DNA of 64,000 nucleotides from NCBI GenBank assembly GCA_013239625.1, contig MU055785.1:434001-498000 (forward strand), in the 5' to 3' direction. The position numbers were made by a program, and so were the translations under genes. Shown here in pieces: positions 9,001-63,112 of this stretch. The notes beneath the pieces were generated by a model that was not told the origin of the DNA, ran no database searches, and worked only from the letters and a program-made list of their open reading frames with translations. Each line of letters begins with the position of its first letter. Positions within the stretch are counted from its first letter, which is position 1. The stretch is from Lama guanicoe. Its lineage: Eukaryota.

Positions 9001-9117
9001 GGACCATATGCCAACTTACAGAGATGACCCAGGGAGAATGGAGAGGGTTTTTCTATCAATCTTTGCAACCCACAGCCCAGCCTGGGCAGATGTTCCAAGC
9101 TGACTAGACACCCTCCT

Positions 9118-9765
9118 TGATACAGGAAAAACGAATGTAGGGTGAGAGGAGGGCCATGTCCCAGGTCTCGGCTGGTTCCTGGGACGTGCCCCGCCAACTG
9201 TGGGTCCTTGGCTTCGCTCAGTAAAGAATTCAAGAGTGAGCCACAGTTGAGCAAAGATAGATTTATTTAGAGAGATGCATACTACATAGAGTGTAGGCTG
9301 TTTCAGAAAGTGAGAAAAAGGCCATGAGGTTGGGAGTTGAGTGCTCAGGTTAAAGTAAAAGTAGGTACACACTCCATAGACAGAGTACGGGCCATCTCGA
9401 GGGCATGAGAGAGGCCACGAGGCATGGTGTTGCCAGTTTTTATGGGCTCAGTAGCTTCACATGCCAACAAGTGGAGAACCATTCCAACTACCCTGGGGAA
9501 GGGGCTGGGTTTCCCAGGATCTGAGCCACCGCCCACTTTGACCTTCTATGGTCAGCCTGGAAGCTTTCATGGCACCTGTGGGAGTGTCATTTACCATGTT
9601 AATATTACAATGAGCATATAATGAAGCTCAAGGTCTACTAGAAGTTAAATCTCCCGCCACCTTGAGCCTGAAGACCAACTGGGAGTTGAATCTTCCACCA
9701 TTTGGGTGTTAATTGCTGTGTCATTCTTTGAATGGTTGTGCTCTGACCCCTTCCTTCCTGTCTCA
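9118..9765 (-). mobile_element. Solo LTR related to 8475-9000, opposite orientation
   Basis: Reverse complement begins TGAGACAGG and ends TATCA; flanks TCCT/TCTT are a near 4-bp TSD. Confidence 0.75.
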
Positions 9766-10266
9766 TCTTCACTTCAGATGAGACACACATAGGACGGGAT
9801 GTCCCCATATAGGACGCCCTGCAGCTTTATCCTTCATCCCACAAATAGCCCAAGCCTTTTGCCTTCAGGGAGGCGGATTTGAGATTTGTTCTCCCATCTC
9901 CTGGCTTGGCTGCCTTGAGAATAAATCCTCTGTGTTGAAAACCTCAGTTTCTCAGCTTTTTGGCTTGCTGTGTATCAGGCAAGAGAAACTTGACTTGGAG
10001 TCAGGCCTTCTACAATTCCCAAACTTGAGGGCAAAAGTGAGGTAGGCTGTTTGCCCCCATTTTACAGATGGGGAAACTGAGATTTTGCCCAGGTCACACA
10101 GAGTGAAGGTGACAAAGTTTGAATTTAAGCCAAGGTCTCCCTGACTCCAGAGTCTGTACTGCTAACATCTTAATGTCAGCACGTTGGGGCACGTCCTGGA
10201 TGTTTGCTTTCAATATTTGTGGATTAAGATGAAAGCTTCAGCTCTCTGCTTCAAGGAAAAAACTTT

Positions 10267-10687
10267 TGCCAACTGGGAGGGAAAATGCACAGTCTAAAAG
10301 TTGAGAACGGTTTTTATTCGGGGGCATTACAAATTACGGAGGACTATGTAGCCTGGGATCCAGTCTCTCAGCTCTGAAGAATTGTTCCAAAGAGGTAAGA
10401 GAGAAGCCAGGATATGAGTTTTTGCTGGTGGGGAGAAATGAACAAGGATTCCCACTAACCCCAAAAACAGACATCTCAGGTTAACGATTTTTGAGTGCTT
10501 TTCTATGTATGAGATGCAAGAATCTAGCCTCATTGAAAGTATTCCTTTTGATATGCATCTTATCTAGGGATTTAGCCCCATCCTGAAATCCCCTAAGGGC
10601 ACACCAACTATGCTGCTGGCATGGCTGAGGGCAGGCATAATTCATTGTTTGCTTACGGGAATGGCAGGTTAACATTCTTTATCCACA
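10267..10687 (-). mobile_element. Solo LTR inserted into duplicated segment
   Basis: TG...CA ends, TTTATT near left end, flanks CTTT/CTTG; absent from the paralogous copy near 6870. Confidence 0.7.
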
Positions 10688-10959
10688 CTTGGAAGCAAAA
10701 GAACCAGCCTGGCCCTTGTCGAGAGGATGCAGATTACGAAGAGTGAAAGAGGTGAGTGACGGGAAACAGGGCGACACTGGTCGCACAGAGCCGCGGCTGA
10801 CAGCGGAGGCTGGGAAGTCAGACTAACGTGGTGGAGAGGGGTAAACCATCAGCATCCACATTTTAAACTTAAGGAAACTAAGGCCAGGAGAGGGGCCACG
10901 TGGACAAGGAAATCTAAGGGACAGAGGAGCGGAACCTCCAATTCCAGGCCCGCACTCAG

Positions 10960-13109: not shown

Positions 13110-14988
13110 GTAAGAGTGGCCGTCTCTCAATGCTCATTCACCCTGTGGGTATTACTGTGGCCTGTGTGCAGGGCGCGGGGTCAGCTGTGAGCTCCCAGCC
13201 ACACAAGGTGAGAGGTGGCTGAGATGCGGCGCCATCAGTGTGGTGATGGGGAAGCAGAGGGAGCCATAGGAGCACGCCAGGAAGGCTCTCTGGAGGAGGG
13301 GATGCCTGGGCTGAGATGTGAGTGCAAGCAGACGTGACCCAAGGGACAAGGCACGAGTGGAGAGTGTTCCAGGCTGAGACCAGAAGGTAATTAACAGAGC
13401 CCTGGGCACTTAAGGAACTAAAAGGTAGGTGTGGCCGGCACTGGGGGTGGGAGGGCCAGTGGGAAAAGGCCAGCTGTAGAGCAGGGTGGTCTAGCTGGAG
13501 CCCACTAGGTTTAGGAATTTTTTTAAAGGCCCAGGGATAGGAGGAGCCCTTCACAGCCTGGGCCTTAAAGGGGCAGAGGCAGAAACGAGCACCTCCAGAA
13601 ACTGACAGCAGCTGGGAGCTGGAGAAGATGCAGGGGGTGGGGTGAGGGAGCTGCAGAGGAACAGCCACTCAGGATGGCTGGTCGGGGCGGGGGGCCAGGG
13701 GGCCCAGGTGTTGTCCCCACAGTACAGAGAACGGCCCTGGGCCAGATGGACGGTGCACAGCACCCAGCCCCACTGGGCTGCGGGAATGATGCACCCACGT
13801 GTACAGTGGGCTGGATCGAGCCCCTGAGGCCCTGGCGGAACCCAGCAGCCGCCCTGGCCGTCCTTTGCCCCTCTGTGCCCTCCCTGACCGTGCTTCTTGG
13901 GCTCTTCTCTAGCTGGTAAGTTGGAAGCCAAAGCCGCTCTGAACCAAGCCCTGGAGATGAAACGCCAGGGCAAGCGGGAGAAGGCCCACCGGCTCTTCCT
14001 GCACGCGCTCATGATGGACCCGGGCTTCGTGGACGCGCTCAATGAGCTGGGCATCTTCTCGGAGGAGGACAAGGACATCATCCAGGCGGACTACCTGTAC
14101 ACCAGAGCGCTGACCATCGCGCCCCACCACGAGAAGGCGCTGGTCAACCGGGACCGGACGCTGCCGCTGGTGGAGGAGATCGACCAGAGGTATTTCAGCA
14201 TCATCGACAGCAAAGTGAAGAAGGTCATGTCCATCCCCAAAGGCAACTCTGCGCTGCGCAGGGTCATGGAGGAAACATACTACCACCACATCTACCACAC
14301 GGTCGCCATTGAGGGCAACACCCTCACGCTCTCAGAGATCCGGCACATCCTGGAGACCCGCTACGCCGTGCCGGGGAAGAGCCTGGAGGAGCAGAATGAG
14401 GTCATCGGCATGCACGCGGCCATGAAGTACGTCAACGCCACGCTGGTCTCCCGCCTCGGCTCCGTCAGCATCAGTGACGTGCTTGAGATCCACCGGCGGG
14501 TGCTGGGCTACGTGGACCCGGTGGAAGCCGGCCGCTTCCGCACGACACAGGTCCTCGTGGGCCACCACGTCCCGCCCCACCCTCAGGATGTGGAGAAGCA
14601 GATGCAGGAGTTCATTCAGTGGCTCAACTCTGAGGACGCCACGAGCCTGCACCCGGTGGAGTTCGCGGCCCTGGCGCACTACAAACTCGTGTACATCCAC
14701 CCCTTCATCGACGGCAATGGCAGGACCTCGCGCCTGCTGATGAACCTCATCCTGATGCAGGCGGGCTACCCGCCCATCACCGTCCGCAAGGAGCAGAGGT
14801 CCGAGTACTACCACGTCCTGGAGGTTGCCAATGAGGGCGACGTGAGGCCGTTCATCCGCTTCATTGCCAAGTGCACAGAGACCACCCTAGACACCCTGCT
14901 CTTCGCCACCACAGAGTACCCGGTGGCACTGCCGGAGGCCACACCCAACCACTCTGGGTTCAAGGAGACGCTGCCCGTGAAGCCCTAA
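12809..14988 (+). CDS. FICD: FIC domain protein adenylyltransferase (HYPE; BiP AMPylase/deAMPylase), spliced CDS join(12809..13109,13913..14988), 458 aa
   Basis: 301+1076=1377 nt. N-terminal TM segment ([21 protein letters not shown]), TPR region, inhibitory helix TVAIEGN, Fic motif [13 protein letters not shown]-terminal ETLPVKP*. GT-AG intron 13110..13912 in phase 1. Confidence 0.98.
13913..14988 (+). CDS. FICD: FICD last coding exon (TPR + Fic domain)
   Basis: Polypyrimidine tract plus TAG| at 13912; frame [12 protein letters not shown]... to TAA 14986-14988. Confidence 0.97.
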
Positions 14989-17560: not shown

Positions 17561-17650
17561 GTGGAGGGTATAGCTCAGTGGTAGAGTGCATGCTTAGCAT
17601 GCACGAGGTCCTGGGTTCAATCCCCAGTGCCTCCAACTAAAAAAAATAAT
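17561..17650 (+). mobile_element. tRNA-derived SINE (Vic-1-like) between FICD and SART3 3' ends
   Basis: GGAGGGTATAGCTCAGTGGTAGAGTGCATGCTTAGCATGCACGAGGTCCTGGGTTCAATCCCC plus A tail. Confidence 0.85.
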
Positions 17651-18972: not shown

Positions 18973-21900
18973 CTGGAAGAGCAAACACTGAATGTACCTT
19001 CCGTTCATGAAAATAAGCCAGGACAGTCTTAAATTACCCCCAAGTAAAAGGTGAAACACAGAACATCGAGAAGGATGAGACAAGCCCTGTCTCCCTGACT
19101 TTCGCTTGTAGGTAAAAATCACTGTAACAAGCTGCCTTTTCCACAGGTTTGGCAAGGGCCAAGCCTTTGCAATGCAGTCACATGTGGGGTGGATAAAAAT
19201 GGCTGTGACCTTACAGACCTCACCAAATGAGCGCAGTTTTGCTGCCTCAGCTCTGTCGGGTGAGGACACGCCTTCTGTCCACACTACAGCTGGGGCTGTG
19301 GATCAGCCCACACAGATGGGTTCTCTCGCTAAAGGGGCTTTAATCACTGTCTTAGAAAAACCTGACCTTAAATAAGTCACCAGTGTAAAGTGGCAAACAC
19401 CAGGGAGGGCCCCACTTCCAGGCTGGCACTCGGTGTAGACTGGCTGCAGACCCCGGTCCCCCGGGGAACGACTGTGAGCACCGCCAGGAACGGCAGGCCC
19501 TGGCCTCGTGCCTGAAGTCGCGGCACTAACGGGAACCGCGGTCACCGGGGCGCCGGCCAGGACCCAGCCCGCGCCCGCCACACTTACGCTCCGTACATCT
19601 GCCGCGGCACCAGGGGGCCCCCTGGGGCTTTCCTAGCCTCCGGCTTCTCCGGAACTCTCCTCTGAGGAGGATTGCTGATGGCCACTTTGATGACGTTCTC
19701 TTTGATGGTCATGCCGTCCATCTTCAAGACAGCCTGCGACGCCTGGGATTCGTTTTCGTACTCCACGTAGGCCAGGCCCTGGAAGTGCATGAGCCCGAGC
19801 CCGGTCGGTGCTGCACAGCCAGGACACGGCTTCCTCCCTCCCGTCCGCAGGCCGGCGGGGCAGACACCCACCCTCGGGTTCCCGCCCCCACCACCGGCAC
19901 CCTTGTCTGTAGGTTCGTGTCCCTGCCCGTCTTCCTCCCTTTTTCTGCAACTGACTATAATCCACAGAACTTTTTAAGGTCAGTGCATCTTGTGCTGGCT
20001 CCAGTGAGAAAAAGAAGAGAGAGGCCAGCATAAACCTAGCACACAGACAAGGTGGCCAGGACACAGAAGAGCCCCGATCGCTCTGTGCCCTAGGGCCGCC
20101 CTTACTTCATAGTCCTCAACTCCCGATTAGCCTGGATACACGGGAGCTGGGGTGAGAGGTCATCCAAGCTCTTAAACAGCTATTCAAAACGTGGTCAAAG
20201 CTTTCACGAGAGGTTGAGGGGACCACGGGGGGCCAGATGAGGGGAACGCCAGCAGCAGGAGACTCGTGACAAGAGGGGTCTGGGCAGGAGAGAAGAGACC
20301 ACAGAGGGGGTGCCTCACCCCAAGGCCCACAGCCTGGGGGCCACACTGGAGCCCCTGCTAATTCGTGGGAGTTTTTCTTCAAACGCCTTATTCTTTTTAG
20401 TACAGTGAGCCACAAATGGGTGAACCCAACTCTGAATGTAAGTAGAGCCTAGCGCACCTAGCCTCGCGTGAACTTCTCATCTGCTCCTTAGCAGACAAAC
20501 CAGAACCCACTATGGAACCAAACCATCTTTGAAGATGGAGAATGGGGCTCCTGGGCCCCAGGAGACGCACGCCATCTGCAGAGACGCTGACCTTGGGCTT
20601 GCCGGCCCGGTTGGTCACCAGCCGGATGTCCTTCACAGTGCCGTGAGCCTTACAGATCTCCTCGAGCTCCTCTTTCGTGCAGGAGAACGGCAGGCCTGAG
20701 ACGAACAGTTTGTGCTTCTCCAGGGCGGTGCTGTACCTGAACACCTGTGGGAGGAGGGAGAGGGAACCGTGACTCGGGCCCAACCCAGCTCCCCACGCTG
20801 TAGGCCACAGCCTCGCCCACGGGGCTCGCTCAGCCCGCCAGAGCCCAGGGTCGGCCCCAGGTGCTGGAACTGTTAATCCAGTCACTCTGCTCAAGTCACT
20901 CAGATTCTCGAAGCCTCCACTTCCTCCTCTATAAAATGGCCAGCATGAAAGTCGCTATTCTTAGAGTTTGGATCAGGGTCCACTGAGGTAATATGTGACA
21001 CTTCGCGCAGCCCCCGGGCCTCCTAACCATTCAGCAGCAAGTACCCAGCATACAGTTCCTAATTTTACTGTCATTTGTGAACAGTGCAAGCTCAAAGTAC
21101 CCCAGGCCTAAGTGAGACCTCAGTTACCAGCTCAGAACGGACCCCAGATAACGCGGAAGTTTCGCTCTAAACAGAGGACGGATGGTCCGCGTTTGCTCCA
21201 CATCCCCACCGCCGTCCGTGCTACAGACCCCGCGTAGAGGCACTGCCTCCCCCGCGACAAACCTTGAAGTCGGGGTGCTTGCTCTTGTCCACGCAGGGGG
21301 AGACAAACATCGGCCTCCCCTCCACACTCTTGCGGTCCAGCTCCAGTGCCCGCAGGGCCGCCGCCTCTTCTTTGAACTCCACGTAGCAGTAGCCCCGGAA
21401 ATCACCGCGGTTGCTGAAGATGGGGCGGATCTCGACCACGTCCCCGCAGGCCTCGAAGAGCGGCCGGAGTGCAGCTTCCGGCGCCCCCAGGCTGTAGGGC
21501 AGGTTGCTGACGAAGACGGTGACCCCGTCCTTGCTGCTGTCGTGAAGCACCTTGGGCATGTCCCTTTTCGGGGCGGCCGCCCGCGCCTTCTGCTTGGAGG
21601 GGGGCTCCACGTCCACGGGGCCCGTGTCTTCTTCCAGGTCAAGTCCGACTTTCCCGGTGGCAGGAGGGACACTGTTCTCCACCCTCCTGCGCTTGGAAGG
21701 CTGCTCTGCAGTGTCGGGAGGACAGCGGCAGCGGCTGAGGGGCTGTCCAAGGTCAGCCCCTCCCAGCACTAAGGGCTGGCCGGGACACACCCACGCACGC
21801 ACCCCGCCCTCCCAGCCCACCCGATCATCCTGCTCCTTCCTGGGTCCCAGATCCCTGGGTGTAAGCGGACTAACTCAGGCAGAAGTGGTAAGACAAGTTC

Positions 21901-24900
21901 TCATCGTCCACTCTTAATTATAGGAAAGGTCAGAGGGTCTCAAAGTCGGGCTGGCAAATTCCAAGAAAGTGCAGGGGTGGGGGGAAGGCTGGAGCATGGA
22001 GACCAGCACCCCAGGAGACACTGGAGTCGCGCTCCCTGGCCACACGTTGGGAAACAGTCGAAGTGCTATAGTTCCTAAAAACATCCAGTCTTGTCTGTGT
22101 CCTTCAACAGAGTTTAACAACATTTCACTCCACCCCATTCTCCCCACTGCCTCCAGGGGGACAGTACTGACACCCAACTGGTTTTGGGCCCTCTGCTTCC
22201 AGATTTTTCCATCAATTCCCTACCACTCTCCTGGCAGAGTCAACCACTGCTGGTGTCCCTGACGGGGCGGCCGGGCCACCTGCTGCTCCAGCCTCACTGA
22301 CCCGGCACCTGGCCCTCTGTTGTGCATCAGGGCCCAAACTCACTTCTTTGCTACTCAGAGAAAATGCCAGACTATCCTGTGCCCTGTGCTTGGCTGACGC
22401 CGGCCAAGCAGCCAGCCCCTTCCCTTCTTTTCCATTCGACAGTCCCCAAGGCGCACGTGTCACTCCCACACCAAGTCTCCTGCAGGCAGCGGACCCCTAG
22501 TGCCTTCCTTGGCCTCCACCACTGTTCGCACCTACGTCTCCCCCAGGCCCGATCATGCACCGCTGCGGTCACAGGTCCCGTCTGCCTTACCCTGCTGCCC
22601 CAGGAGCCCTAAAGGGCAGTGAGCTGCCCACCAGCATTCCTGAAGGCCCCAAAAAGGTGCACAAGAAAGGTCAACTGGCTGATGTTACTACTTCCCTCTG
22701 GCTGACAACTTTCTACTAGAAAGATGTTTCGCATCCTTCAGCATCTACACAATTCTTCACCTTGACTGACTTTGCTGAAATAAATCTGACCCACACCTGC
22801 CCACACCTGAAATGGCAGTGGTGACAGAAACACTGGCTGGAAAATTCTACAAGTCGAAACCAGTGGATGGGGCAGGTAGGCTGCCACGGTGGTGGATGAG
22901 GGGTGTCCACACACGGGCAGTGATGGGACAGGGTGGGTGTGGGGGCCGGAGGTGGGGAAGGAGCACCCACGGGAGGAGGGTGGCAGTGTCCCACACACTG
23001 CTGGGAGTGGAGCGCAAGTGGCCCTGGGCGGGGGTGTCAGTGCGGGGCGGCGCTGGGCACCCACATCGACGGTAGGCGGGGACGGGGAGGCCAGTGGCAC
23101 CTCACAAGCAACTTTTTCTCCAGTGGCTCAAGCAGAACGCTCCCTGCGCTGCTCTGCATTGTCTGCAGGGCTGGGGCGTCCCCAGAGTCCCCCCGACTTT
23201 ACCTTCCTCATCATCACCCCACTCTTTCTCGTCATCCTCGTCTGCTTCATGCTTGTCCGCGCCTCTGATCTTTTTCTTCTTTCTCAGAGCTTTCTTCTCA
23301 GCCCGAGCCCTCTTCCGCTGTTCAGCCTTTTCTTCTTCTTGCTGGACGAGGGCTGCTTCCTTCTCCGCAGCCTGGAAAACCAGGATGTGACGCCTCAGTG
23401 GATGCAGCAAGGAGGTGAAGTCTGGCTGGTGATGAGGGGAGGAGGGAGGGGACCAGGAGCACGGCGAGGAGGGGGCCTGCCTTCCCCTGGTCAGGGCTCC
23501 TCAGGCTTCCCAGGAGCTGCATCTCAAGTCTGCAAGGAGTCTCACAAGACCCCGGGAATTACCAAAAGGAAAAACCTATAAAACCAGGGCCCTGACTCAT
23601 TCAGGCATGTTCATGTCCCAATCACTAGGCTAAACAAGGCTCTTTTTTTTTTTTAATCTTTTTCATCTATTTTAATAGACTTTAGGGCCAAAATTCCCTC
23701 GCTACGTGAAGTATTTACTGTTGGGGCTTAAATTTAAAGACAATCTGGAAAGATGATGGGCTTAAATATGGATTCCAACATCTCATAAGTAATACTGTGG
23801 GTAAAAGACACTTCTAAGGAAGACCTCAAAGGCTCTGACAAGCATCAGTCACGCCAGTCAAAACAGCTGCCAGAGGTTCCAGATACTTGAAATCAAGAGC
23901 ACCATTACCTTAAGTCTCTGCTCATTAACACGAGCTAACCGAGTTTCCGTTTTCTGAACAGCTATGTCCCAGTCTTCTAACGTACCTTCAGAGAAAAAGA
24001 AACACTTTCACTTTTTAGGATTTCAAAGGATATAATAAGATAAAATGTTCTTAATTTCCCCGCACCTCCAGAAGAGATCTGTCCCAACAAACAGAACTAC
24101 AGAATCAGCTCCCCACTTTCAGAAGATTTCGTTAGCGCAGGTTTCAAGTTTCAGAACTTTAAAAGTCCTCCCAGGTGTGCTGAGAACACCCCTTCTCTTT
24201 CAGAAAAGAGATCTAAAAACCAGAATACAATCTATTACGGGCTCTCTATGGCAAAGATTATGAGAACATTCTAAAGCTAAACGTACAAGACACCTGGACT
24301 AAGACCGAAAGATTTCAAGGACTCCTCAAATGATAGTTTTTTGAGGGGAGGAGGGTAGTAATTGGGTTTACTCATTTACTTTTAGAGGAGGTACTGGGGA
24401 TTGAACCCAGAACCTTGTGTATGCTAAGCATGCGCTCTACCACTTGAGCTATACCCCCCCGGCTTCAAATGATAAATGTTGAGGTGTTTTTCTTTCTTAC
24501 TTGCAGTTGCTGCCTGGGTGTTTGTTTCCAGTTCTGAAGGGTTCATACCCAAAATCCAGACTAACGCCATGGATAAACTTACTATTTCCTTGGGAAACCA
24601 ACACTGAGGCTCTGAAATTCAAAAGGGAAGTACACATGGCCAAAGACCACGTTTCGCCATTTGCCTCTAGGCACTGCTTCGGTGTGCGTGACGCTGGGCG
24701 AGCGCACGGGTTCTTCTGACCTTCAGGGACCCTCCAGCAATGTCCAGAGACGGTTCCAGCTGTCAGGACCGGGGACAGGGAGTGCTACTGATACCCAGCG
24801 GGGAGAGGGAGGACAGGGATGCGGCCACGAGGCGCACGATGGCCACACCAGCGTCACGAGGGGTCTGTGCCGGAGCATCGCCACAGAGCATCCTCACACG

Positions 24901-27900: not shown

Positions 27901-30900
27901 CCACCCCGAAACTATCAGCGTCAGACAGCACCCTGACGCTCCTAGGCGCCCAGCGTGGTGACAGGCCCAGCCCAAGCACGTGACCCTTCCTGCAGCGACA
28001 AGCTTCAAGCTGGCTGCCCACATTTGCCCGAGACACAAGCACAGGAGCCCACAGGCACTTATGACAGTACTGGCCAGGCGTTTGTGTTTTTATGTTTTTG
28101 TTTAGGCGTTGTTTTGTTTTTTCCATCATGCTTAACAATGAGGGTTTAATTTGAAGGGCAAGGCAGAGAAAGACGGTGATCCAGGAGCAGACGCCGGCTC
28201 TCATCCTCTCTGAGCTCACAAACATCCCATCCCCAAACTACCTGGTATGTGTCTCCGTGACCCGACTTTGTCTCAAGAAGAAAATACTAGAATCTGACAA
28301 TCCTATGAGCTGATCAAGGGCAGTGTTCATGTCTTACTCACCGTGAGGTCCTTGGTCCGGGAATAACCCTGAACTCATTATATCCCCTAATCATCTGTCT
28401 TCCAGACTACACTGAAGCCTCACCGGCACAGGGACAGGGTCTATCTCACGTCCCCGGAACACAGCAGATCGTCTGACAAATAGCTCACCCCGGGTACACG
28501 CTCATCAGTGAGGCTCTGAGCAGGAGGGGACGAATAGAGGGTGTGCCTGGCATTCAGACACCTGCTGCACAACTTCAAACTGGGAGCCAGTGTCCTCCCT
28601 CAGACAGACGAGTGTGCCTCAAGCTAGGGAAATAACACGAGTCCATGCAGAGCACAGACCATCACCTTGGACAAAGGTCCTTCAAAGGTGGATGAAACTG
28701 ACAGATATGTCAGAAACACGCACCTCAATCCGAGCCCAGTTCTGCATAATCAGGCAGCTTGGATCCCCACTCTCGTTGAAACCTTAAAGAACAGGAGGAG
28801 ACAAAATCAGAAGGTACCTCAAGAGATGAACAGCCCTGGGCTGAAAAGGCACAGCAAAGAGGCAACGAGGCAACACGACTGGACAAGGCAGGGGGCCGCA
28901 CTTACGCTCGTCCACCTCCTGTTTCAGGTACTCCAGAGCGCGGGCGAACGCGGCCCGCAGCTCTTCCAGCTCTTTACTGGAGTCTGCGAGAAGATGCAGG
29001 AGGCAGAGCTCGGTGAAACCATATGCTATGTTCTTTTTTTTTTTTTTTTTTTNNNNNNNNNNNNNNNNNNNNNNNNTTTTTTTTTTTTTTTTTTAACCCC
29101 AAACTGAAACTCCCAGGAGCGTGAGATGCACCTGGCACCATGCTGGGGACACAGAAAGAAAACTGCCAGTCTCCCCGACCCCTGCCCCGCCCTCATCACA
29201 CAGCAGGGGAAGAAGACCCAGAGCACATGGTAATGTAAGGACAAGGTGGCAAGGGCGCTGAGTGTGGGACCGCTGCAGAGGGGGCCCCTCAAGCCAGCAG
29301 AATGGCTGATGGCCACCTGCACGAGTGGGCAAATACCAGCTGGACTAGGGATTCTGGCTGCTCTGGGGTTTTTTTGTTGTTTTTTTTTTTTCTTTTTTTG
29401 AGGGAGGCAGGCAGGGGATCCTATGGAGGCTCAATGATTTAAAAGAACACAGCAGTCCTATGTTCAGAACTATTTACGACATACAGGAGGGAGAGAAGAG
29501 AGAAATGAGACTATGGAGGCTGGCAAGAGCCCGTGTAGGATGTAAGGACCACTCTCTTCCTTTACAGTCTATCTGTTAGACTTAAATCACTACAGATTCT
29601 GAGAAAACAAGTTACCCATGGCTGGTCTCCATCATTTGCCCCATCAGGTGGTATTTGGGCAACTGGGACATCCCACCAAAAGACACGTTAAGAAAAAGCT
29701 CAGTTCTGACATGAAATTTCACATGAATTTCAATACCTTGTTTGAAATCAACCCTTCTCCTCAGGTAATCAAGGTACGCCTGCCAGATCTCCACATAATC
29801 AGTGGCTTGAATGAAGCCAGCACTCAGAGCTTTCTCGAAGGTCACTGGAGTTAGAGAAGAAGCCAGGATATGTTGCCAATTCAAAAAGAAGCTAATACAA
29901 AGTTACCAAGGTTACTGCAGAAACCGCTACTGACTATAAAATACCTTATGGTTTTAATAACAACAGGCTGCAACAAAGTGAAACGAGCCAGAGAAAAATG
30001 TTCAAAAGAAAGGCTGCTACAGTGGGGCCCAAACTGGGTTCTAGAAAGGGCACAGCCCACGAGGTGTCCTGCATTCGAGTGCTCCAGGTCGAGTTAGCTG
30101 GAGAAAAGACCGGGACTTCCTGGATTATCACAATGCATATTAAGACATAAAAAGTTCTAAAAAGCCAAAAGGACCACCGGTTTACCTCCCACTTACAGCC
30201 CCTTCTGTCACTATTATTCAATATTCCAGAGTAGCCCCTGGGGGACACTGATTTAATGGCTGTCACAGCTCAGTGTTTCTGACTCGCACAGAAAGTTTAG
30301 ATGTGTTCCCACAAAAACATTCGCACCTGAAATCACTCGATGATCAACTCCGTGTCTTTCCATGGCCAAGAGGTACCGACTCCACAGGGCAACTGTCCAG
30401 GGGCAGTTTCTAACAGCGCGACTGTGCACAGATAAAACCAAATCCTTCACTTTCAGCTGCCGATCCTATGATAGAGAATGCCAGGGTCAGGAGATAAAAT
30501 TTTATTGTTACGACTTCACCATCCACAAGACATTTCCAGCACAGCCAACTGATGAGAGAGATGTCCTTAATGATGTCTCCTGTGACTGGTTTCTTCAACA
30601 AAGAAATCGCAACGGAGACTGGGGGAGAAGAGGAAGAGAGAAGGAGAGGGGACCTACAGATCAAAGAGCTATCAGCCAATCCTAAAGTCCAGATCTTGTT
30701 CAGATCCCAATTCAAATCTTTTATATATACATACTGAAATATTTACCATCGAAATGGGATTTCTGGATTTGCTTCACAATAACATGGAAGGAGGGGACTA
30801 GGTAAGGAAACAGATGAAACTAGTAACATATAGATGAAACTAGACTAGTGCCATTCGTCACTTGAAGCTGGGTGATAATTACTTGTCATTTCATTTCACA

Positions 30901-42900: not shown

Positions 42901-45900
42901 CACCAGGAAGACAAAACAACCCTAACTGCGTATGCACCAGCCACGAGAATCTCAAAATAGATGCAGCAAAAACTGATGGAGCTAAAAGAAGAAACAGCCT
43001 CATCCACAATAATACTGGGAATTACGGCATCCCCTATTTCAGCAACTAAAGGAACTACCAGATAATCACCCAGGACACAGAAGAATTCAACACCATTAAC
43101 CTGCATTGTCTAATTGATGTACATAGACAACTCCACCCGACAGTAACAAAACACACATTTTTCTCGAATGTCCAAAGAACACTGAGACCATATCCTCGGC
43201 CCTAAAACTAATCTCAACAAACTTAGAAGAAATTAAATCACACAGAGCATGTTTTCTGATAACAACAGAATCAACCTAGAAATCAGTAACAGTAGGAAAA
43301 TCTCTGAACACTTGGAAATTAAATAATACACCTGTAAGTAATGTATGGCTCAAAGAGAGTCTCAAAGACAACTTTAAATCCATACAGCTGAATGAAAATG
43401 AAAATATAGCAAATCAAAATAAGTGGACTGCAGCTAGCACAGGGTGGAGAGGAAAACTTACAGAACGAAATTCATGCACAGGAAGAACGATACCCCACGC
43501 CTACAGGTCTGCAAGCCTAGTTCGGTCTCTGAAAATCAATCACCATATTCCACTGCATCACAGACTAAAGCACAAAAACCATGCTGTCAATTGATAGAGA
43601 AAGTGCATCTGACAAAGTCCAACAACCGTTGACGGTAAAACTCTCAGCAAATTAGGGCTTCACCAAAATTAAAACTTTTTGCTCTGTAAAAGGTTCTGCC
43701 AAGAGGCTGCAAAGACAAGCTACAGACTGGAAAAAGTGTTTATAAACTACGTATCTGACCAAGGACTAATATCTAAACGATGTAACTCCAAACTCAACAG
43801 TAAAAAACAAACCAATTAAAAAGCAGGCAAAAGACAAGAACCAACACGTACATTCAAAGAGGACACAGACGGCAAGCTCAGTGCACAGGAACAGCGTTCG
43901 ACATCTGTAGCTCCAAGGGAAATACCAGCTAAGACCAGAGTTATCATTACACACCTCACAGAATGGCCAAAATGAAAAACAGTGACACCACCAAATGTCA
44001 GAGAAAGATGCTACTGAAAACCTGGATCGCTCCTACATTGCTGATGAGAACGCAAAATGGTACAGCAGCTCCGGAAGACAGTTTGGCAGTTTCTTGTAAA
44101 ATTCAACACACAACCATCGTGTCACCCAGCAAGTGCACCCTTGGGCATTTTTCCAGAGAAATAAAACCTATGTTCACACAAACCCCTCTACAGGAATGTG
44201 CGCGACAGCTGCTCCTGACAGCCAAACCTGGTAACTAACCAGACTTCCTTCCGTGGCTGAATGGTTGGACTAACCGTGGGACACCCACACCACAGATACT
44301 CCTCAGCCCTAATAAGGAACACTGAATAAGCACACGACTCAGATGAATCTTGAGGGAATTATGCTGAATGAGGAAGGCTGATCCCAAACGGTTACATGCT
44401 GTATGATTCCAGTTACATAACATTTTTGAAATGATAAAATCATGGAAGTGGAGAACAGACTAGGGGTTGCTAGAGGTCAGGAACTGTGAAAGGACTTGAG
44501 AACAACTCCTTGTGATGACAGAACTGATCTGTGTTGGTTATATTAACATCAACATGTGGTTTGTAATACCTACTACAGGTTTACAAAAGGTTACCTTTGG
44601 AGGAAACTGGGTAAAGGGTACACAGGATCTGTCTATATTATTTCTTACAACTACAGGGAAACCTACAATTATCTCAAAATGAAACTTTTTTAAACTTTCA
44701 GAAAAAAAAACATGGGGGTATGGAGGTTACATTAAGTCTATACACCAAGATCAGACCAGTATCCACTCTTCTAACATCTGCCATGGCATTTCAGCAGTAT
44801 TTCCCTCTCCAGAGATGACAGAGTGCCTGTACGTCACTCAATTAACACTCCGCCGCCTGACAACAGACCCAGTATTCTAGACGCTAGCTGCCGCACTGAA
44901 GCACACACAGGAGGATTTGTCTTTGCGGGTAGCAAGTCTCAGCAATGAGTTAGACCATGGAACTGACACAGGACGGACAAACGGACCACAAGAACGATGC
45001 AGAGTGCCCGGAAACAGACCCCCGCACACAGAAAATACAGCACAAGCACACATACATCCACCGAATACAGAAGTGGCGCCGGTTACATCCACTGAATCGA
45101 ATTCATGACCCCAGTTTGAAAAACACTGACTGAGGGGAACTCTCATACAGGTTCAAGGGCAGCAGTTTAATAGGAACAATGTTCCTTGTAGTTTGTAATA
45201 AGGAAAAAAAACTGTACACAATTCAAACCCTGGAACAACTGACAGACTCTGGACTCCTCACATGCTGGGGTTCCAAATATTCAGCACGCGACACGGCTGG
45301 ATCTTGGGGACACACTGCTGAGTAAGCAGAACCAGCAAATGACACATCGCACGATACGCTTTTTTAAAAGGTTCAGAAATGTGAAATAGGTAAACAACAA
45401 GGACCTACTACATTGCACAGCGAACCACATTCAATTTCTTACAAGCTACAACGGAAAACAATCTGAAAATATATGTAAACATATGTATGTATATGTATAA
45501 CTGAATTGCTTTGCTGTACACCTGAAACTAACAGTATAATTCAATTACACGTCAATAAAAAATAAAACTTAAATTTAAAAAGAAGCTCAAGGCGGGGAGT
45601 AGGTAGAGCTTAGTGGTAGAGCACCTGCAAAGCATGCACGAGGTCCTGGGTTCAATCCCCAGTGCCTTCATTAAAAAAAATAATAGATGAATAAACCTAA
45701 TTACCCACTCCGAAAAAAGTGGACAATATAGTGCTGAGGGACGCAAACTTAGGTGATACAGTTATACAGAAGGAAGCACACACAATTCAAGGGAGCAGGC
45801 ACCTGGGCTGTAGGAGGGGGCAGGGGGAGGGTCAAGGCAGGGCCATGGAACAGGGGAGAGGCCGGGGGCACAGCGACAGAGGTGATGCAGCTCTCACTCT

Positions 45901-50969: not shown

Positions 50970-51083
50970 ATGGCGGCGGCTGGAGTTGGCCGTCTGAGGC
51001 GGGCGGCGTCGGGTCTGCTGCTCCCGGCCCCCCGTCTGCCCGCCCGGGAGCTGTCAGCTCCGGCTCGGCTCTATCACAAGAAG
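50970..51083 (+). CDS. ISCU: ISCU exon 1 (mitochondrial targeting peptide)
   Basis: Kozak AAGATGG; donor AAG|GTAGGG; 114 nt. Confidence 0.96.
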
Positions 51084-54000
51084 GTAGGGGCGGGCGAGGG
51101 CGTGCGCGGGGCCCGTCCTGGGCAGGGGGGCAGGAGTGCGAGGACCGCTCAGAGGACTTGGCGTCCTAGCGGAGGCCGGGCCCAAGGAGGAGTGGCCGCC
51201 GGGCTCTGCGCTGCCCAGGTGGGGCCGCCCCTCGCACAAGTCCTCCTCGACTGACTTTCTTCTCGCTGTTCAGGGGCACTAAGAATGACAGTTCAAGCCC
51301 CTCTAGCGGCCATTGCCCGTGGGCCCCGCCGCTGGCCGCGATCTCGTGCATCCAGCCTTTAAACTTCCCAACTGCCCAGGAAGGAGGGTCCTGCTCTGAC
51401 CTGCCAGCCAGACTCCAAGGACAGACACACACAGCAGCGCGGGCTCCGGCTTCAGCCAAGGCCACTGTCCTGGCCAAGTGACCTTGCGCAAGTCACTGCC
51501 CCACGCTGAACCTATTTCCCCACTTGTCCAGTGGGGTCTTAGCAGTCCCCCTCCCTGAGACCATGCCTGTGGGGTCCTCGGCCCGATGCCTGACACACGG
51601 AGGCCACTTAGGGTGCTGCTGCTGTCATTGTCGTAGGAGCTCAGAGCCTTCAAGTGGAGCCAGACATGTAACCAACGGCCATAACGTTTTTATTTTTGTT
51701 TCTTCTCGGGGGGAGGGGCAGCTATGAGTACAAATAGGTGCCTAGTTTGCAGCCCTGACCTTCCTGGGGCGTGAAGTCCCTAAACGAGATTCTCTCACTC
51801 GGGAAACGGTTAACTAAAGAATGCAGTCAGTCAACACAGGGCAGAAAGTCCATACTGGGCGCATAGGTATGCTTAGTGGTCCTGGATTCAATCCTCAATA
51901 CTTCCATTTAAAAAAGAAAGAAAGAAAAAGAAAATCCACATTGGACATTACTTTGTAGGTCCTGGGCTTAAAAGTCAAATTCCGTGGTCTGATAGGTGGT
52001 GGGGTAGGGGACTGGAAGTTTGGGGAACTTAAGGGCTGACTGGTAAACAAACCTCAAGGCTTTTAAAGCTCTCACTGTGGCAGTTTGAATAAATGCTTAT
52101 ATGTTCTGGCTTCAGTGCGTTTGCCCAAGGACTTCACTCCTCCCCCATCTAGGGGTGTATGTTGTTGACAGTACAGGCGGAATTAACTTGTCGCTAAGCA
52201 GCCTTTCAGCCACCAGGGTGCTCTGCTGCACCAGCGAGATTTCAGGGCCCTGAAACACAGTAATGGGACCGTTGTCATTTATTAATCGCACACAAATGGA
52301 CAGACGCCACAGCATTGTTCTTCCTGTAAGAATCTCCTTGAGGCTTCTGGGAAATCCTTCCATTTCTGGACTGTACTTATTTTTAGATTTCTGAGTAGTA
52401 ATCATTATCCTTTGAGAATGTATTTTATTTGGAAATTACAAAGATGATGTTTGAGCCCAAATCTGGTGATGGATGGTTAAAGGTCAAGTAATTATTTGTG
52501 GCTCAAAACCCTATGGAATTAAGACATGATTTTGCTGATTTTTCTCCACTATCTTGCATCTCTGAAGGTGGCTAGAGAGGAGATACAAAAAGACTTTGGG
52601 TCACAAGTGGTTCTCACTGACATGAATGTAAGCCTTCCTCCCGGAGTGAAATTTGGTCCTGTGTGATTGCCTGCCAGGTTCGGGTTGCTAATTTCCCGGA
52701 GCTTGCCATCAAAGTCAGGGAGAGCAATACCTCAAAAAAGAGTGATTGTGATTTCTCTTAACCGTCTCCTTGCAGGTTGTTGATCATTATGAAAATCCTC
52801 GAAATGTGGGGTCCCTTGACAAGACATCTAAAAATGTTGGAACCGGACTGGTGGGGGCTCCAGCATGTGGCGATGTGATGAAATTACAGGTAGCTCTGGT
52901 CTCCATCTTTCCTGGTGGTAATGGTGATCCCTTTGTTGTACAGTGCTTCGTAGTTGATGGAGCACAGCACAATGCTTTTGGTCCCCATCTTGATTCCTGT
53001 GAGACGGGATGCGTCATCATTATAAGTGATTCAAGCCGGGGCTGAATCCTGGTCCTACTGATCCACTACACCGACCCTTCCTGACACAGTAAACTGACCT
53101 CACTTTTGTACTTACTGTATCAGCTTAAATTCCAACTTCAGCTAAGTAAAAGCTGTTGTGACTTTCACCGATCAAAGGAAAACCACAGCCATTCAGTTAG
53201 CAATAAATCAAACCTCCCGCAAGTGGGAGACAACGCGCAGGTAGTGCCTGGCACTTTCGGGTAAACCGGAGCTCTCTCCACATCTACTTCATCATGGTGG
53301 GTGGGCAGCTCGCCAGGTGGCTTCATGCCTATCTTGGGAAACAGAAACAAGGCAGGAGGGAACCACTAAATGCAATTTGGTGCCGAAGGAAAAAAAAAAA
53401 GCATTCACCAGAGGCATTTATTGCAGGCTCCTTCAGTGTTTAAAAATGCAGGTCCACCCAGCAGCTGGGAGTAGAAGTTCACATCCAAAATTCAGGCTAG
53501 GGTTGGGGGGAAAGAAAACAGGAGGAGGCATATTTTTTTCAGCTGATCTTTACCAGCTAGGCCTGTATAATTCGGTGTGGTTGTTCCTACTATTCACTTT
53601 TCATCACCCAGCTCTTTGAAACAAAGGCAACTCTGTAACTAATGCCAAAACCTTAAGCATGGAGAACAGGACCAGAGCTCTCAGGGAGTGCCCCAGGGGC
53701 CCTCCGTGAGTGCCAGGTTCTACAGGGCGGCACCAGAGTCACTGCTGACTCCTGCCTTTTTTCTAGATTCAAGTGGACGAAAAGGGCAAGATCGTGGACG
53801 CCAGGTTTAAAACGTTTGGCTGTGGTTCTGCGATTGCCTCCAGCTCGTTGGCCACGGAATGGGTAAAAGGGAAGACGGTAAGTTTCTGCCAATTGGACAA
53901 AATTGAATCATTCCCCACAAACCTGGCTCTCAGTTAAGGGAAGGGTCCAGTTATATTAAAAAAAAAAAAAAGTAACTATGATTTTTTTTTTTCCTAAATA

Positions 54001-57000
54001 AATTCTTCTTCACATTGGGAATTGTGGATAATTCGGTGAAGTGTTTTTCAGTTTGAAGCCAGGGGGTTCTTGTTGATCATTTTTGTTTGGAGGTTTTGGA
54101 GGTATTTTGGTTTTTATTATATAGAAAATAGATCCTCACCTCCCCCTCAAAGAAAAAAAGAAGTGAAAAGAACTCCTTGGCTTTCTCCAAGGTCACTGGT
54201 AATGTCATCGTTTCTTAGACATCTGAGTCTGCTCCGGCTGTTGTCGGGTAGCAGTTTGTTTAGTTTATTTCCTCCCATCGTGTTTCAGGAAGGACTGCAG
54301 GTGGCTTACAAGGATTTGTGAAATAACAAACTAGCCTTTCTAAAATCCTGTTGTCATTAAAACCTCTCAGAAAAGCCAAACTGCAGGTGCATGTCTTTGC
54401 AGCCCCAAGGGGCCGAGTTCAGGGAGCTGAGTGCTGGTGGCGTGTGCTGGGGGAGCTGGGAAGCTCTGGAGCAGAGCCCTCCGCCAGGCCCCGTGCTGCC
54501 GCTTCCTGCAGCTCAGGGCCTTCTGGCTGGCAAGCCTCTCTGAGCCACAGAAGCAGAGACCTAACCGGTTCTGGCTGAAGGTGGCTCTGGAGTGATTTGT
54601 CCAGAACTACCCTCAGGGAAAGGAAGTGAGGAGACAGGGCACCTGTGCTCCCAGGACCCGGCCCTGCAGGTGCCGTGAGTGTGACCAGAAAGGGGGGTGG
54701 GGAGGGCTTTCTCTGACCTTGAGATCCTCCCATTAGATCAGGAACAGAATTTGAACCATAACTGAGTGAGATTGGGAAATCGGGGGCAGGTGGGGAAATC
54801 TGGCTTTCCTAAAGGCAGCGGGGCTCTCTTCCACATAGGGCTGCCACACGTTATGCCCTCGGGCTCTCGACCAAACCCCAGGCGTCCTTTTCAGTCCATC
54901 TAGAGGAGAAAGATTCTCTCGTAGGCAGGGGACGAGCCCAAAGAGCTCTCAGCCCGAGAGCTGTCTGTGCGCCACCCACCCCACCCCCCGCTTCCATGAT
55001 GCCACGTAGCATTAAGAGTTGAAGGGATTTATCCTGAACACTGGGTATAAGGACATCAGAGAAACTGACACTCACAAAACCAGCATAGGAAACCACTGCC
55101 TTTTAAAAAAGACTCGAGTTGCTGGCCTCAAGCAGATCCCTAAGAGACTTCTTACAGGTTCTGCTCCTGACTTGCAGCAGTGTCTGGCAACCACGCAGTG
55201 CCGGGGTGTACACTTCACCCTAGAGAATCCCAGCGGCAGCCTAGACTTGGAAGTGGGGGTCCTTTGTTTGAGGTTACTATGTGGAAACCATCCCCCACCA
55301 CCCTGCCGCAAGGGCCTCTTCGGCCCCTTTTATTTTCCATCCCACTGCGTAGAGCATCACTAAAACTGCTCGTCTCTCCCGTCTGCCTCCCAGGTGGAGG
55401 AAGCCTTGACCATCAAAAACACAGACATCGCCAAGGAGCTCTGCCTGCCGCCTGTGAAACTGCACTGCTCCAGTGAGTCTCCCCTCCCCAGAGTGCCAGT
55501 GGGCCCAGACAGCGGGGCGTCACTTTTGTGACAGAGTAATGGCGAGTCCTTTTTGGTCCCGGAGTCCACCTTGACAACCCTCCGAGGGTTGGAGCTCGTG
55601 GGGTCTGCTCGTAACCTCCAGAAGGTTGCGCCCAGGGTCTCACCGCCCTCTCCAGGAGGGTCTTCCAGCACGTCGTGACCTCACTTCTGAACCTCAGAAA
55701 CGGCCTCCATCCACAGAAGGCGTCACTGCCTCCCCCCGGCACGGATGAGGGAACGAGGGCTCAGGTGAAAGCGCCCGTCACACAGCCCCTGAGCGGGAGA
55801 GCCAGCACCCAAACCCAGTCGCTGATCCCAGAGTCCGTGTCGTTCCCGCCCCTCTGTGGTGGAGCGAGGTCACTCGGGGAGAAAGCGCAGCGCTCACCGC
55901 CGCCCTGTTTGCTGTGCGCTGTATCACTTCCTTTCCAGATGCGCTCACTGCCGGGGTCTGCATCTGCGTGTATGGATGACTAAGCCGGGTTGTGCAATGT
56001 CCCCCTCTTCACTGTCCTAAGAGAAAGCCCAGATGCCTTAAGACTTACACTTGGCTTTCCAGTTCAGACTCTGTCTTAAACCTAAAGCTTTTCCTTCTTC
56101 TCTCAAGCTTCTGGGGAAGAGGGAATGGGAAACAACAGCCTTAAGTTACTGGTAGACATTTACTGACCAAATTCATTATAAATCAGCAGAGACAGGCCTC
56201 TTGCCAGGGTAAGACTCACAGGGGAAGTGAGCGCCAGGGCAGGGACCAGCTAACGCTGCCTTCAGGAAGTCTGCTAAGACCCGAGTTCTTTCCACTTGAG
56301 CTGGAATTTCAGATACCCGTGAATAAAGGCCCTGGCTTGTAAGCATTTTCACATGGTTTCGGAGAAACCCCAGCCTTTTCACTAGGCCATCCTGGGTACT
56401 GAAACCTCTAGTCAGCGCTCCCTGCCGTCATCCCAGCTCTCTCCATTTTTATTTTCCCCATGGCTTCCCTTTTAACATCAGCTCCAAAATAAAAGTTTTC
56501 AAACTTAGGGTCACTGGAGAGTGACAGCAAACACCATGCCGTCAACAGACTGGCATGACCCACGTTACTGCAGCCACAGTCACCAGCATCCCCTGCATTT
56601 GTCCTGACTCCCGTGTGGGCAGCTGAGAACTCACGGTCGTTGTGTCCCTCCTGTGTATAAAGTCCTCGAGGACACCATCCCAGCAGGAAAAGCATGACTG
56701 TCCCAGTTTTACAGAAGAGAGTGTAGATTCCAAGAGGCTAAGGAACCCACCTAAAATCCTGGGTGTCTGACCCCAAGTCTGTCCTCAGAGCCACCCCGCG
56801 GGAGTAATCCTGCTCAGAAAGCAGCTGTCGGCTGGCCGAGAGCTTGCTCCTCACCCCCAGCACCCTGGCAGGGGACTCTCTTAAGCCTGTCCCAGCACCA
56901 CTGCCTCCAGCTCTTAAAGATTCTCTGCCTAAGACCATCTCTGCAGATTCTGGACACTTAGGCTCGCTTTCCTTCCCTTACTTCCAGTGCTGGCCGAGGA

Positions 57001-57073
57001 TGCCATCAAGGCTGCCCTGGCTGATTACAAACTGAAACAAGAACCCAAGAAAGAAGAGGCCGAGAAGAAATAA
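50970..57073 (+). CDS. ISCU: Iron-sulfur cluster assembly scaffold ISCU (mitochondrial isoform), join(50970..51083,52776..52889,53767..53877,55394..55472,56988..57073), 167 aa
   Basis: 504 nt. Arg-rich presequence, [47 protein letters not shown]. Confidence 0.98.
51857..51932 (+). mobile_element. Internally deleted SINE remnant in ISCU intron 1
   Basis: ATGCTTAG..GGTCCTGGATTCAATCCTCAATACTTCCATTTAAAAAA. Confidence 0.55.
52776..52889 (+). CDS. ISCU: ISCU exon 2 ([10 protein letters not shown]...MKLQ)
   Basis: AG/GT bounded; 114 nt. Confidence 0.97.
53767..53877 (+). CDS. ISCU: ISCU exon 3 ([10 protein letters not shown]...VKGKT)
   Basis: AG/GT bounded; 111 nt. Confidence 0.97.
55394..55472 (+). 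CDS. ISCU: ISCU exon 4 (VEEALTIKN...LPPVKLHCS)
   Basis: AG/GT bounded; 79 nt. Confidence 0.97.
56988..57073 (+). CDS. ISCU: ISCU exon 5 ([10 protein letters not shown]...EKK*)
   Basis: Acceptor CAG|; TAA 57071-57073. Confidence 0.97.
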
Positions 57074-57088
57074 GCCGTCGGCGAAGCC

Positions 57089-57096
57089 ACGCACAG
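57089..57096 (+). promoter_or_regulatory. miR-210-3p seed match ACGCACAG in ISCU 3'UTR
   Basis: Exact complement of miR-210-3p nt 1-8 (CUGUGCGU), i.e. a 7mer-m8 site. Confidence 0.6.
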
Positions 57097-57468
57097 GTCA
57101 CACCTGCTTCTTGCCCACCCGCTGTGCAGTCACGCAGAAGCCCTCGCACTACAAAAAAAGAGCTATGAGATCCGCACATTTGCTCTTCACGTTGTGACTC
57201 CAATGCAAGCAAAATACAGTCGAATTGTTCTGAATCCTGTAGTTTCTTTCAGTTCACTTTTATCACCTTAACCCAGGTCATGTCTGTTTGAATTGTGTAT
57301 ATGGCCTCCAAACTGAAATCGATGGTGAAGTCTCGCATTCGGGGAGGCATGAAGTGCACAAATATCTGATTTTACCTGAATCTATTTTGGGGAAGATTAC
57401 TGATAGAATGCCTTGGTAAGATTATTTGCTAGAACCGAGTATTGTACATAAAACAGATTTGCATATAT

Positions 57469-57478
57469 AATAAATAAA
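57469..57478 (+). terminator. ISCU polyadenylation signal (overlapping AATAAA x2)
   Basis: AATAAATAAA about 400 nt after the stop, with upstream TGTA and downstream U-rich tract. Confidence 0.8.
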
Positions 57479-59968
57479 AGAATGGAAGACGATGTTTTTC
57501 TCTGGTAAGCCTTGTCTCTTGGGTCCCTCACTCACCCCAAGGTGCTGCCCACAGCCCCTTGGGTTTTGCAGACACTGGACCACGACTATGCCTGCACCTT
57601 TCCTAGCAAACTGGGCAGTAAACACCACACACGGAGATTTTTACAGAGCCGAATGTCGGTAATGTTTTATGAAACAGGAGGGAGGGTGAAAGGAGAGGTT
57701 CAAAATGAGTCCAGAAGATTCTTTTTGTAATTTCACTGGTTTGTGAAATCCTGAGATCTGAGGAACTCTGCCATGGACGCTCCCCTAAAACTGTGGATCA
57801 AACACACAAAGAGGTCTAGGGGGTGAGTTTAAAATGTTGATTTCTAGACCCAGGGCCCTGCTTGCTGTAGGTCTGAGCCCGCAGTTCCAATACCTGACTT
57901 CGGAGAACCTCCGGGGAGGTTTTGTGCGCTGGCAGCTGAGCCTAGCCATCAGGGAGAAACTTCCTTTGTCCACTCACTGTCTTGCATGAGTGTGACACTT
58001 AAGTAGTTCGTTCTGAACTGTCTGTGCATGAGCAGTGACCTAAAGTTTAAAAACATCGACTTCTGGCTCACGGGCAGGTAACAGACACTCTAATCTCTGC
58101 CCCCCCTCCCCCAACCTGCCCCCAGGGCTGACGGGGAGGCGGACAGATGGTCCCATGCAGAGGGGCCCTCGGTCGGGCACCAGCTAAAAGCCCCACTAGA
58201 GGAGGCCCAATTTTCTAATGAAAACGTGATCTCGAAATGCCAGCTAGGAGCCTCAAGTCTCCAGCGTCAAGAGGAAGATGCTTTTGTTTTTCCTGATACT
58301 CAGGCATAGGCTGGCTGCCTCTTCTCTTTAATATACCTCCTTTGTTTTAAAGAAAAAAATCAAAAACTCCTCTGGGTTCTGGGGAAGGGCACAGAACTTC
58401 AAAGGCCACCCCTCTGCAGCCTGCAGGGCAGGCCACAGAGCAGGCCTTCATCAGAGTCTCAAATTAGAGCCGCCGAGTGGAACCGTGTCACCCTGGCCCC
58501 GGGGGCATGTTCTACTGTTTAATCCACGGTCTCTCTGGCTGTGTGTGTTGTTTTCCTTTCTTATACGTGGCCACACTGTAATCCCCACCACTCTTCTTTG
58601 GGAGTTTTGAAAATGAGACATTTGTGTCCCAGTGACATCCTCTGAGAGCTGAGGCTAAATTCCACACATCAGAAACTGCTCATAAACAGCACGGCAGTGT
58701 TCCCAGAATAGCCCAGACCTCAAAAGACATGGTCTTGCAGCTAAAAGAAAAGAATATTTCACTTTAACATCCCCTAGACTCTCCTCCTCCCAGATAAGAC
58801 CAGTTTGAACCACATGAGGGCACCGCGTACCTTTTGGTGAGCTCTTCGTATCTGGCGGATCTCAGCATCCCTGCGTGGGCTTTTCCCCAGGAGATGGAGA
58901 TGCGCGAGTTAAAAACAGCCTATCGCGCGCCCGCGCTCTGTGCCAGGCTCTGACATCTGTGATCCCCTTCGTTCCCAGGACAGCCCTCTGAGGTGGGCAT
59001 TATTTCAAACAAGGAAACTGGCGTGGGGGTTAGCTGACTCCCAAGCCACCAGCCTGGACTTGGGCTGGGTGACTCCAAGGCCCATGCTTCCCTGCCTCCT
59101 TTCCCTCTGGCAGAACTCGACACCAAGAAGTCTTACCACACAGCCTCACTCGTGCCCTGAGCACCAGCGGGAAGGTGAACCCCAACACAGGATGAGCCCC
59201 AGTCCATTCACTGGCCAACTCGCCACCAAGCCCTGTGGCCCCGGCCCTGGCTATGCCTACTACTCATCAGGGGCCCAATTTTTCCGCAATGCCCAATGAC
59301 ATCAGATGCCATGCGGGTGGGGCCCGGGCACTAGTGTTTTTCAAAGCCCCGAGGAGTTCCCAGTGTGCAGCCAGGAGGTTCTCTCCCCTTTGCAAAGCGG
59401 TTTGCTAAAATTACTTCCATGGAGGCTCACGGTCCTGTGAGAAGGTGTCACTTCCCATCTCCAGCCTCCCTCTCTGCCCCTCCCACCCCCTGCATCTGCC
59501 TTAGTCTAGGCCTCCATCATCTCTCTCCTGGCCTCCCCACTGGCCTCCCTGCCTCCAGACTCACTATTGGGATCCATTCCCCACTCTGACCCTGACACTC
59601 CTCCTTCCCTACCACACGGATCAATCTCTTTACTCTGCCCCACTGAACCTTACCTTCAGGCCCTATGCTGCTCCCCGCCACCGGGAAAGCCCTTGCCAGG
59701 CTTCTCCCTTTAACCTCCACTCAGCCTGGGAGCCTCATCTCAGGCATCACCTCCCCTGAGAAGCCCCCCTTGATTCCCCCAGGCTGAGCTAGGTGCCCTG
59801 CTCGGCTCCCACAGTCCCCTGTACCTCCCTAATCACATACGTATCATGGATGGTTTTGTAATTTTTTCTTGTCTTTCTGTATGTATCATTACTCAGAGAC
59901 TGAGGTTTTTTTAATAATTTTTTTCAATTTTAAACAAGTAATACACTATTTTTAAAACCTCAAACAGC

Positions 59969-62867: not shown

Positions 62868-63112
62868 TATCATCACCACCATCGNNNNNNNNNNNNNNNN
62901 NNNNNNNNNNNNNNNNNNNNNNNNNNNNNNNNNNNNNNNNNNNNNNNNNNNNNNNNNNNNNNNNNNNNNNNNNNNNNNNNNNNNNNNNNNNNNNNNNNNN
63001 NNNNNNNNNNNNNNNNNNNNNNNNNNNNNNNNNNNNNNNNNTATCACCACCACCATCATCCCCATCATCGGTATCAACATTATCACCACCATCATCAGCA
63101 TCATCACCTCCA
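62868..63112. repeat. (CAT/CAC)n trinucleotide repeat spanning assembly gap 62885-63041
   Basis: ATCATCACCACCATC arrays on both sides of the Ns. Confidence 0.85.

Follow-up and report, generated by a model that had tools for sequence, protein, structure and literature searches.

The window (the whole stretch of 64,000 nucleotides analysed, positions 434,001 to 498,000 of contig MU055785.1 from Lama guanicoe) carries ISCU on its forward strand (Table 1). The five coding exons of the gene, as read from the window sequence, total 167 codons plus a stop codon. The gene was identified from three coding exons that match the Pfam family NifU_N over profile positions 6-106 (three of the four exons scanned), and the last exon (27 aa) matched no Pfam family. 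Past the stop codon, the same frame has no further stop for 65 codons (57074-57271), probably by chance; no extended ISCU relatives were found for this frame, and a search for protein relatives of the off-frame translations of the 3′UTR found none.

Table 1. Positions of the ISCU exons and of the sites and signals in its 3′UTR, in window coordinates
Feature	Position	Strand	Evidence
ISCU coding exon 1, with ATG and presequence-like region	50970..51083	+	ATG and GT donor read
ISCU coding exon 2	52776..52889	+	NifU_N, E 2.7e-12
ISCU coding exon 3	53767..53877	+	NifU_N, E 4.6e-15
ISCU coding exon 4	55394..55472	+	NifU_N, E 1.2e-4
ISCU last exon, coding part, TAA at 57071-57073	56988..57073	+	AG acceptor, open frame
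ISCU 3′UTR, about 417 nt, probable 3′ end	57074..57490	+	AATAAA at 57469 and 57473; second copy in run X7 departs from the window past 57489, continuing as an A-rich tail
Two overlapping AATAAA polyadenylation signals	57469..57478	+	sequence read
Upstream site: miR-210-3p 7mer-m8 (57089-57095, nt 2-9), miR-147b 6mer	57088..57096	+	site inventory
Predicted 3′ pairing stretch, miR-210 nt 13-20, within the ribosome path	57073..57080	+	duplex -25.6 kcal/mol
Canonical-position site: miR-210 6mer, miR-147b 7mer-m8	57171..57178	+	site inventory; C57172 common to X7 record 1
Putative 3-nt loss, which would have taken away the A opposite miRNA position 1	57175..57179	+	three additional letters after 57175 in X7 record 1; start of shared record 2 at exactly 57176

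Elsewhere in the window, a Fic-domain/TPR exon (FICD) was found by Pfam match at 13888-14988 on the plus strand, and RRM-like reading frames lie on the minus strand at about 21200-23600; by gene order, the latter are likely SART3. Several direct and inverted repeats (70-78% identity, 100-300 nt) occupy 6599-10897. Six tRNA-derived SINE copies are present (837-941, 1144-1215, 2012-2081, 17564-17635, 24386-24458 and 45599-45670), presumably of the camelid Vic-1 family, and an Rfam scan of the window returned five tRNA-like SINE heads and nothing else. Runs of N at 29053-29076 and 62885-63041 mark the sequence as a scaffold with gaps.

Repression of ISCU by miR-210 is the textbook link from hypoxia to the mitochondrial Fe-S supply, and Chan et al. 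(2009) is reportedly the work cited for the miR-210 site in the ISCU 3′UTR. This site is described as mammal-conserved: according to PMC4619707, the site in human is an 8mer bound by AGO and annotated as conserved in mammals, and a SNP (rs10187, allele frequency 6%) disrupts it and raises ISCU mRNA. The mouse site occupies UTR nt 71-77, has been validated by reporter and retains the A at nt 8 (as given in PMC3944272), and the full human ISCU UTR is reported to be responsive to miR-210 (PMC2859946). Nucleotides 2-7 of the hypoxia-induced miR-210 are common to miR-147b (PMC3441733), which has G as nt 8 and A as nt 9 (PMC4198252). In A549 cells, miR-147b was induced by TNF and LPS, not by hypoxia (PMC3441733); another paper reports its induction by chemical hypoxia too, and describes the miRNA as identical from human to gar (PMC7793259). 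The responses of human ISCU mRNA to mimics were -1.12 (log2) for miR-210, -0.63 for miR-147b and +0.08 for miR-147a. Matches to nt 2-7 of miR-210 were also repressed in mimic experiments (COL4A2, -1.51; SDHD, -0.45; PMC3441733), and 6mers are described as having much lower efficacy, reduced further by a C at site position 8 (PMC4532895). The original prediction had asked that the camelid miR-210 seed be confirmed. In alpaca skin, the dominant miR-210 read is the sequence of the human mimic, so that the mature alpaca miRNA equals the human one in the data reported (PMC3508611, PMC2978113). A search of the alpaca skin supplements of PMC3508611 did not turn up miR-147, and ISCU is not named in the human miR-147b prediction tables searched in PMC7793259.

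In the inventory of the ISCU 3′UTR, miR-210 and miR-147b each have one 7mer-m8 and one 6mer (site classes as defined in PMC4532895). The hexamer CGCACA lies at 57173-57178, between C57172 and T57179; neither a match to nt 8 nor an A opposite nt 1 is present, and miR-210-3p has a 6mer only. Judged by its sequence context, 57173-57178 is the presumed homologue of the human miR-210 site. The claim that nothing beyond this 6mer is left is borne out, and a weakening of the canonical miR-210 site is supported if the position is indeed homologous, the human site being an 8mer (PMC4619707). The original prediction overlooked a further match that C57172 would create, a predicted 7mer-m8 for miR-147b: with the human miR-147b sequence, assumed to hold for camelids, 57171-57178 pairs with nt 2-9, and 57172-57178 forms the 7mer-m8. 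A change away from A gives C in 17-33% of cases by computation, and little can be concluded about selection from the miR-147b match by itself. The energy of the miR-147b duplex at this position is ordinary (2331 of 5000 shuffles were as good).

The second site, ACGCACAG, lies at 57089-57096, separated from the stop codon by 15 nt. Its position and spacing are as first described, but it is not a full match: G57096 stands opposite nt 1 where an 8mer for miR-210-3p has A, and the motif is a 7mer-m8 (57089-57095) with pairing extended to nt 9. For miR-147b it provides a 6mer only. The human ISCU UTR is not known to have an upstream miR-210 site. With UTR nt 16 as its first base, the seed match begins immediately beyond the 15-nt ribosome path, which agrees with its proposed place at the edge of the ribosome shadow; the pairing of nt 9 and the 3′ pairing lie inside that path. 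Flanking AU content is low (0.37-0.40, and 0.20 in the nearest 15 nt upstream), and predicted accessibility is 0.12 compared with 0.29 at the canonical position, or 0.004 compared with 0.26 with a wider folding window. The context of the upstream site is therefore poor, being GC-rich, less accessible and at the ribosome edge. The spacing between the two sites is 76 nt, beyond the 8-40 nt range of cooperation between miRNA sites, and they are predicted to act independently. The miR-210 form with one extra 5′ base, which is the reference form of the alpaca table, would also find a 7mer-m8 in the upstream motif (57090-57096, nt 2-10), and at the canonical position no more than an offset 6mer.

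When the 417-nt UTR was shuffled 20,000 times with its dinucleotides preserved, a miR-210 7mer-m8 arose by chance in 2.0% of cases, or in 4.0% for the first 120 nt. Two miR-210 6mers occur in 0.27% of dinucleotide shuffles of the UTR; since one of the two was inherited, the fair chance figure is about 2-4%, not 0.27%. Pairing of miR-210 beyond the seed in the upstream motif was dropped as evidence, because its duplex energy (-25.6 kcal/mol) was equalled or beaten in 521 of 5000 flank shuffles.

Outgroup UTRs were sought in sequence data. A pattern search with the ISCU coding sequence in metagenomes returned 0 stretches, and 19 loci matching the UTR pattern (13 metagenome, 1 viral and 5 genome) were discarded as outgroup UTRs, as none aligns beyond 36 nt and the matches are attributable to chance. 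Among 24 sequencing runs compared with 48 sampled words of the stretch, 20 matched in part; eight runs, under four organism labels, had 41 of the 48 words, and three had 40. Four of the 24 (X7 and the small-share runs X15, X17 and X19) were aligned to the stretch, and all six records obtained came from X7, which says nothing about the content of the other three.

Records 2-5 of X7 equal the window sequence apart from one difference, T57401C; the T of the window at this position could represent a private allele, or else an error of assembly. Record 1, covering 57062-57205, differs from the window at 15 letters and has three extra letters behind 57175. Changes are present at 57169 and 57173 and none at 57172, which lies 37 letters from the record end, so that the C at 57172 is present in this copy as well. 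The change C57173T removes the CpG of the 6mer core, which is kept in the gene. Record 2 is shared by both loci and begins exactly at 57176, neighbouring records overlapping by 30 nt. Sequencing depths are additive (15.3 and 19.4, against 36.4 on shared record 2), as for two single-copy loci. Record 1 was accordingly rejected as an allele or a contaminant, being about 10% divergent and adding its depth to that of the gene. Record 6 (57445-57489), on a 5.9-kb contig, departs from the window after 57489, 11-15 nt past the AATAAA, into an A-rich tail. The copy thus stops where the mRNA is polyadenylated and continues through an A-rich tail to an unrelated flank, the configuration by which processed pseudogenes are recognised, and this second, diverged ISCU sequence is most likely a processed pseudogene situated elsewhere in the genome. 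Its aligned stretch has no intron position, and its 5′ end lies outside view, with 4 to 7 differences hidden there. The divergence of this copy is about 4-9%.

The original prediction had named a sequencing error at C57172 as a way in which it could fail. This was rejected because the probable processed copy, an independent second locus in X7, has the same C. Over the 150 nt that are visible in full, six differences lie outside CpG and give the copy an estimated age of about 14 My (5-31), at an assumed rate of 1.4e-9 per site per year (taken from PMC7331169), an age resting on those six differences; with CpG changes counted, the estimate becomes 21-31 My. The three letters that are extra in the copy and absent from the gene suggest that decay may have proceeded in two steps, although they could be an insertion in the copy instead of a loss from the gene. 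For record 2 to start at 57176, the gene base before it must differ from the A of the copy, as C57175 does, which supports the shorter state in the gene of X7. The gene records of X7 start at 57176, and 57060-57175 is seen through word counts only. For the seven sampled words missing from X7, P is 0.03 with one difference and 0.17 with two, and the gene of X7 may carry a further, unseen difference in this interval.

The interpretation we put forward, with confidence falling just short of even, is an old two-step turnover in the camelid line that would leave ISCU under weaker miR-210 repression and equal or stronger miR-147b repression, as predicted from the sites. Before the retrocopying of an ISCU mRNA, some 14 My (5-31) ago, the base opposite miRNA nt 8 would have changed from A to C. 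A site that had been an 8mer for miR-210 would thereby have become an 8mer for miR-147b and a 7mer-A1 for miR-210. A later loss of 3 nt from a short tandem would have removed the A opposite position 1, and would weaken the miR-147b site as well. The upstream site would restore part of the miR-210 repression. The predicted outcome is that miR-210, acting on a 6mer and on a 7mer-m8 in poor context, represses ISCU less, while repression by miR-147b, through the accessible site, is as strong as before or stronger. To judge from the sites alone, control of ISCU would have been rebalanced, not removed.

A possible, if unlikely, alternative is that miR-210 control of camelid ISCU has largely been lost by plain decay, the upstream heptamer being a mostly silent chance product of a CpG-rich stretch and the miR-147b match incidental. 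The heptamer arises in 2-4% of shuffles, and its AU context and accessibility are poor, as are its position at the ribosome edge and its 3′ pairing within the ribosome path. The reported low efficacy of 6mers, worse still with C at site position 8 (PMC4532895), points the same way, as does the tolerance in humans of a site-breaking allele at 6% frequency (PMC4619707). Against decay, the CpG of the 6mer core is intact in the gene and lost in the copy (C57173T), which fits continued constraint, although at one site only, and the 2-7 matches of COL4A2 and SDHD did respond to the miR-210 mimic (PMC3441733). There is very little probability that the heptamer is an allele private to this genome or came about as an error of its assembly. 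The gene records of X7 start only at 57176, a second difference in 57060-57175 is likely, and record 1 has hidden differences close to its 5′ end, all of which would leave room for such an error; yet the heptamer occupies 7 of 116 positions and X7 must have most of the words there, wholesale absence of the 57060-57175 words being unlikely (P of seven or fewer missing, 0.001-0.026). A more elaborate proposal, which we regard as decidedly improbable, is that selection in camelids split the shared element, giving the old site to the inflammation-induced miR-147b and the new site to the hypoxia-induced miR-210, and making the two inputs to Fe-S cluster assembly separately tunable.

The states of both sites might also be common to many artiodactyls or other mammals, with nothing special to camelids. 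The age of C57172, up to about 31 My by non-CpG differences and higher with CpG changes included, is compatible with this; the annotation of the human 8mer as mammal-conserved (PMC4619707) and the A kept at nt 8 in mouse (PMC3944272) speak against it, and we consider it rather improbable. Lama and Vicugna separated 2-3 Mya. The original prediction had linked the changes to high-altitude life, but C57172 also occurs in the copy, whose age is about 14 My (5-31), and is not a recent Andean change; even the lower bound of 5 My precedes the Lama-Vicugna split, leaving the altitude link unsupported for this base. Adaptation to hypoxia at high altitude in the South American camelids would be in keeping with the rise in ISCU mRNA when the human site is broken (PMC4619707), as weaker repression could sustain respiration in hypoxia, and the 3-nt loss and the upstream site could be young. 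A study of selection in the four South American species makes no mention of ISCU in its main text. We hold this explanation to be very unlikely. As a whole, the earlier interpretation is supported in part: it retains a probable weakening of the canonical site, loses the altitude link for C57172 and had missed the miR-147b 7mer-m8.

Compensatory turnover of microRNA target sites, in which one site is weakened while another for the same miRNA appears in the same UTR, is a recognised pattern. The ISCU UTR described here resembles it in having one probably weakened miR-210 site and another, putatively compensating, miR-210 site. The ISCU/miR-210 axis and the element shared by miR-210 and miR-147b are already known. 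With the human and mouse miR-210-3p sites (described in PMC4619707, PMC3944272 and PMC2859946), the guanaco sequence has in common the gene, the mature miRNA and a 6mer core in the proximal 3′UTR. It differs in having a 6mer at the presumed homologous place and a 7mer-m8 at UTR nt 16-22, where the human gene carries an 8mer and the mouse gene a 7mer-m8 or better. The element in NDUFA4 (MISTR1) is likewise a single element in a mitochondrial gene for two seed-sharing stress miRNAs, miR-147b as well as miR-210 (PMC7793259, PMC8035321, PMC3441733). It is a miR-147b 8mer, the state proposed here for the camelid ancestor. It is conserved to fish, whereas the ISCU element appears to switch its nt-8 preference in one lineage and, unlike that of NDUFA4, is paired with a second site of opposite preference. 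Like the changes proposed here, the human variant rs10187 is a natural one by which this miR-210 site is weakened (PMC4619707); that variant is a 6% polymorphism disrupting the site, while here the 6mer core is kept and flanking positions are changed. No publication on camelid ISCU miRNA sites was found in a search of mainly open-access text; cross-species alignments in figures may display such a state. A search by titles and the beginnings of abstracts, again of mainly open-access text, found none on the evolution of a miR-147b site in ISCU.

Both motifs are real, and the site turnover that they probably reflect, at a textbook miRNA-target pair, is modest, with a testable change of specificity. 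The probable retrocopy would supply a dated intermediate of this turnover, as it keeps an older state of the 3′UTR. A nt-8 preference moved to miR-147b would make camelid ISCU a natural test of how seed-sharing miRNAs divide a target, and the upstream site likewise offers a natural test of whether sites can function when they begin immediately beyond the ribosome path. If that site is silent, camelids would have little miR-210 control of ISCU, which would bear on how necessary this axis is.
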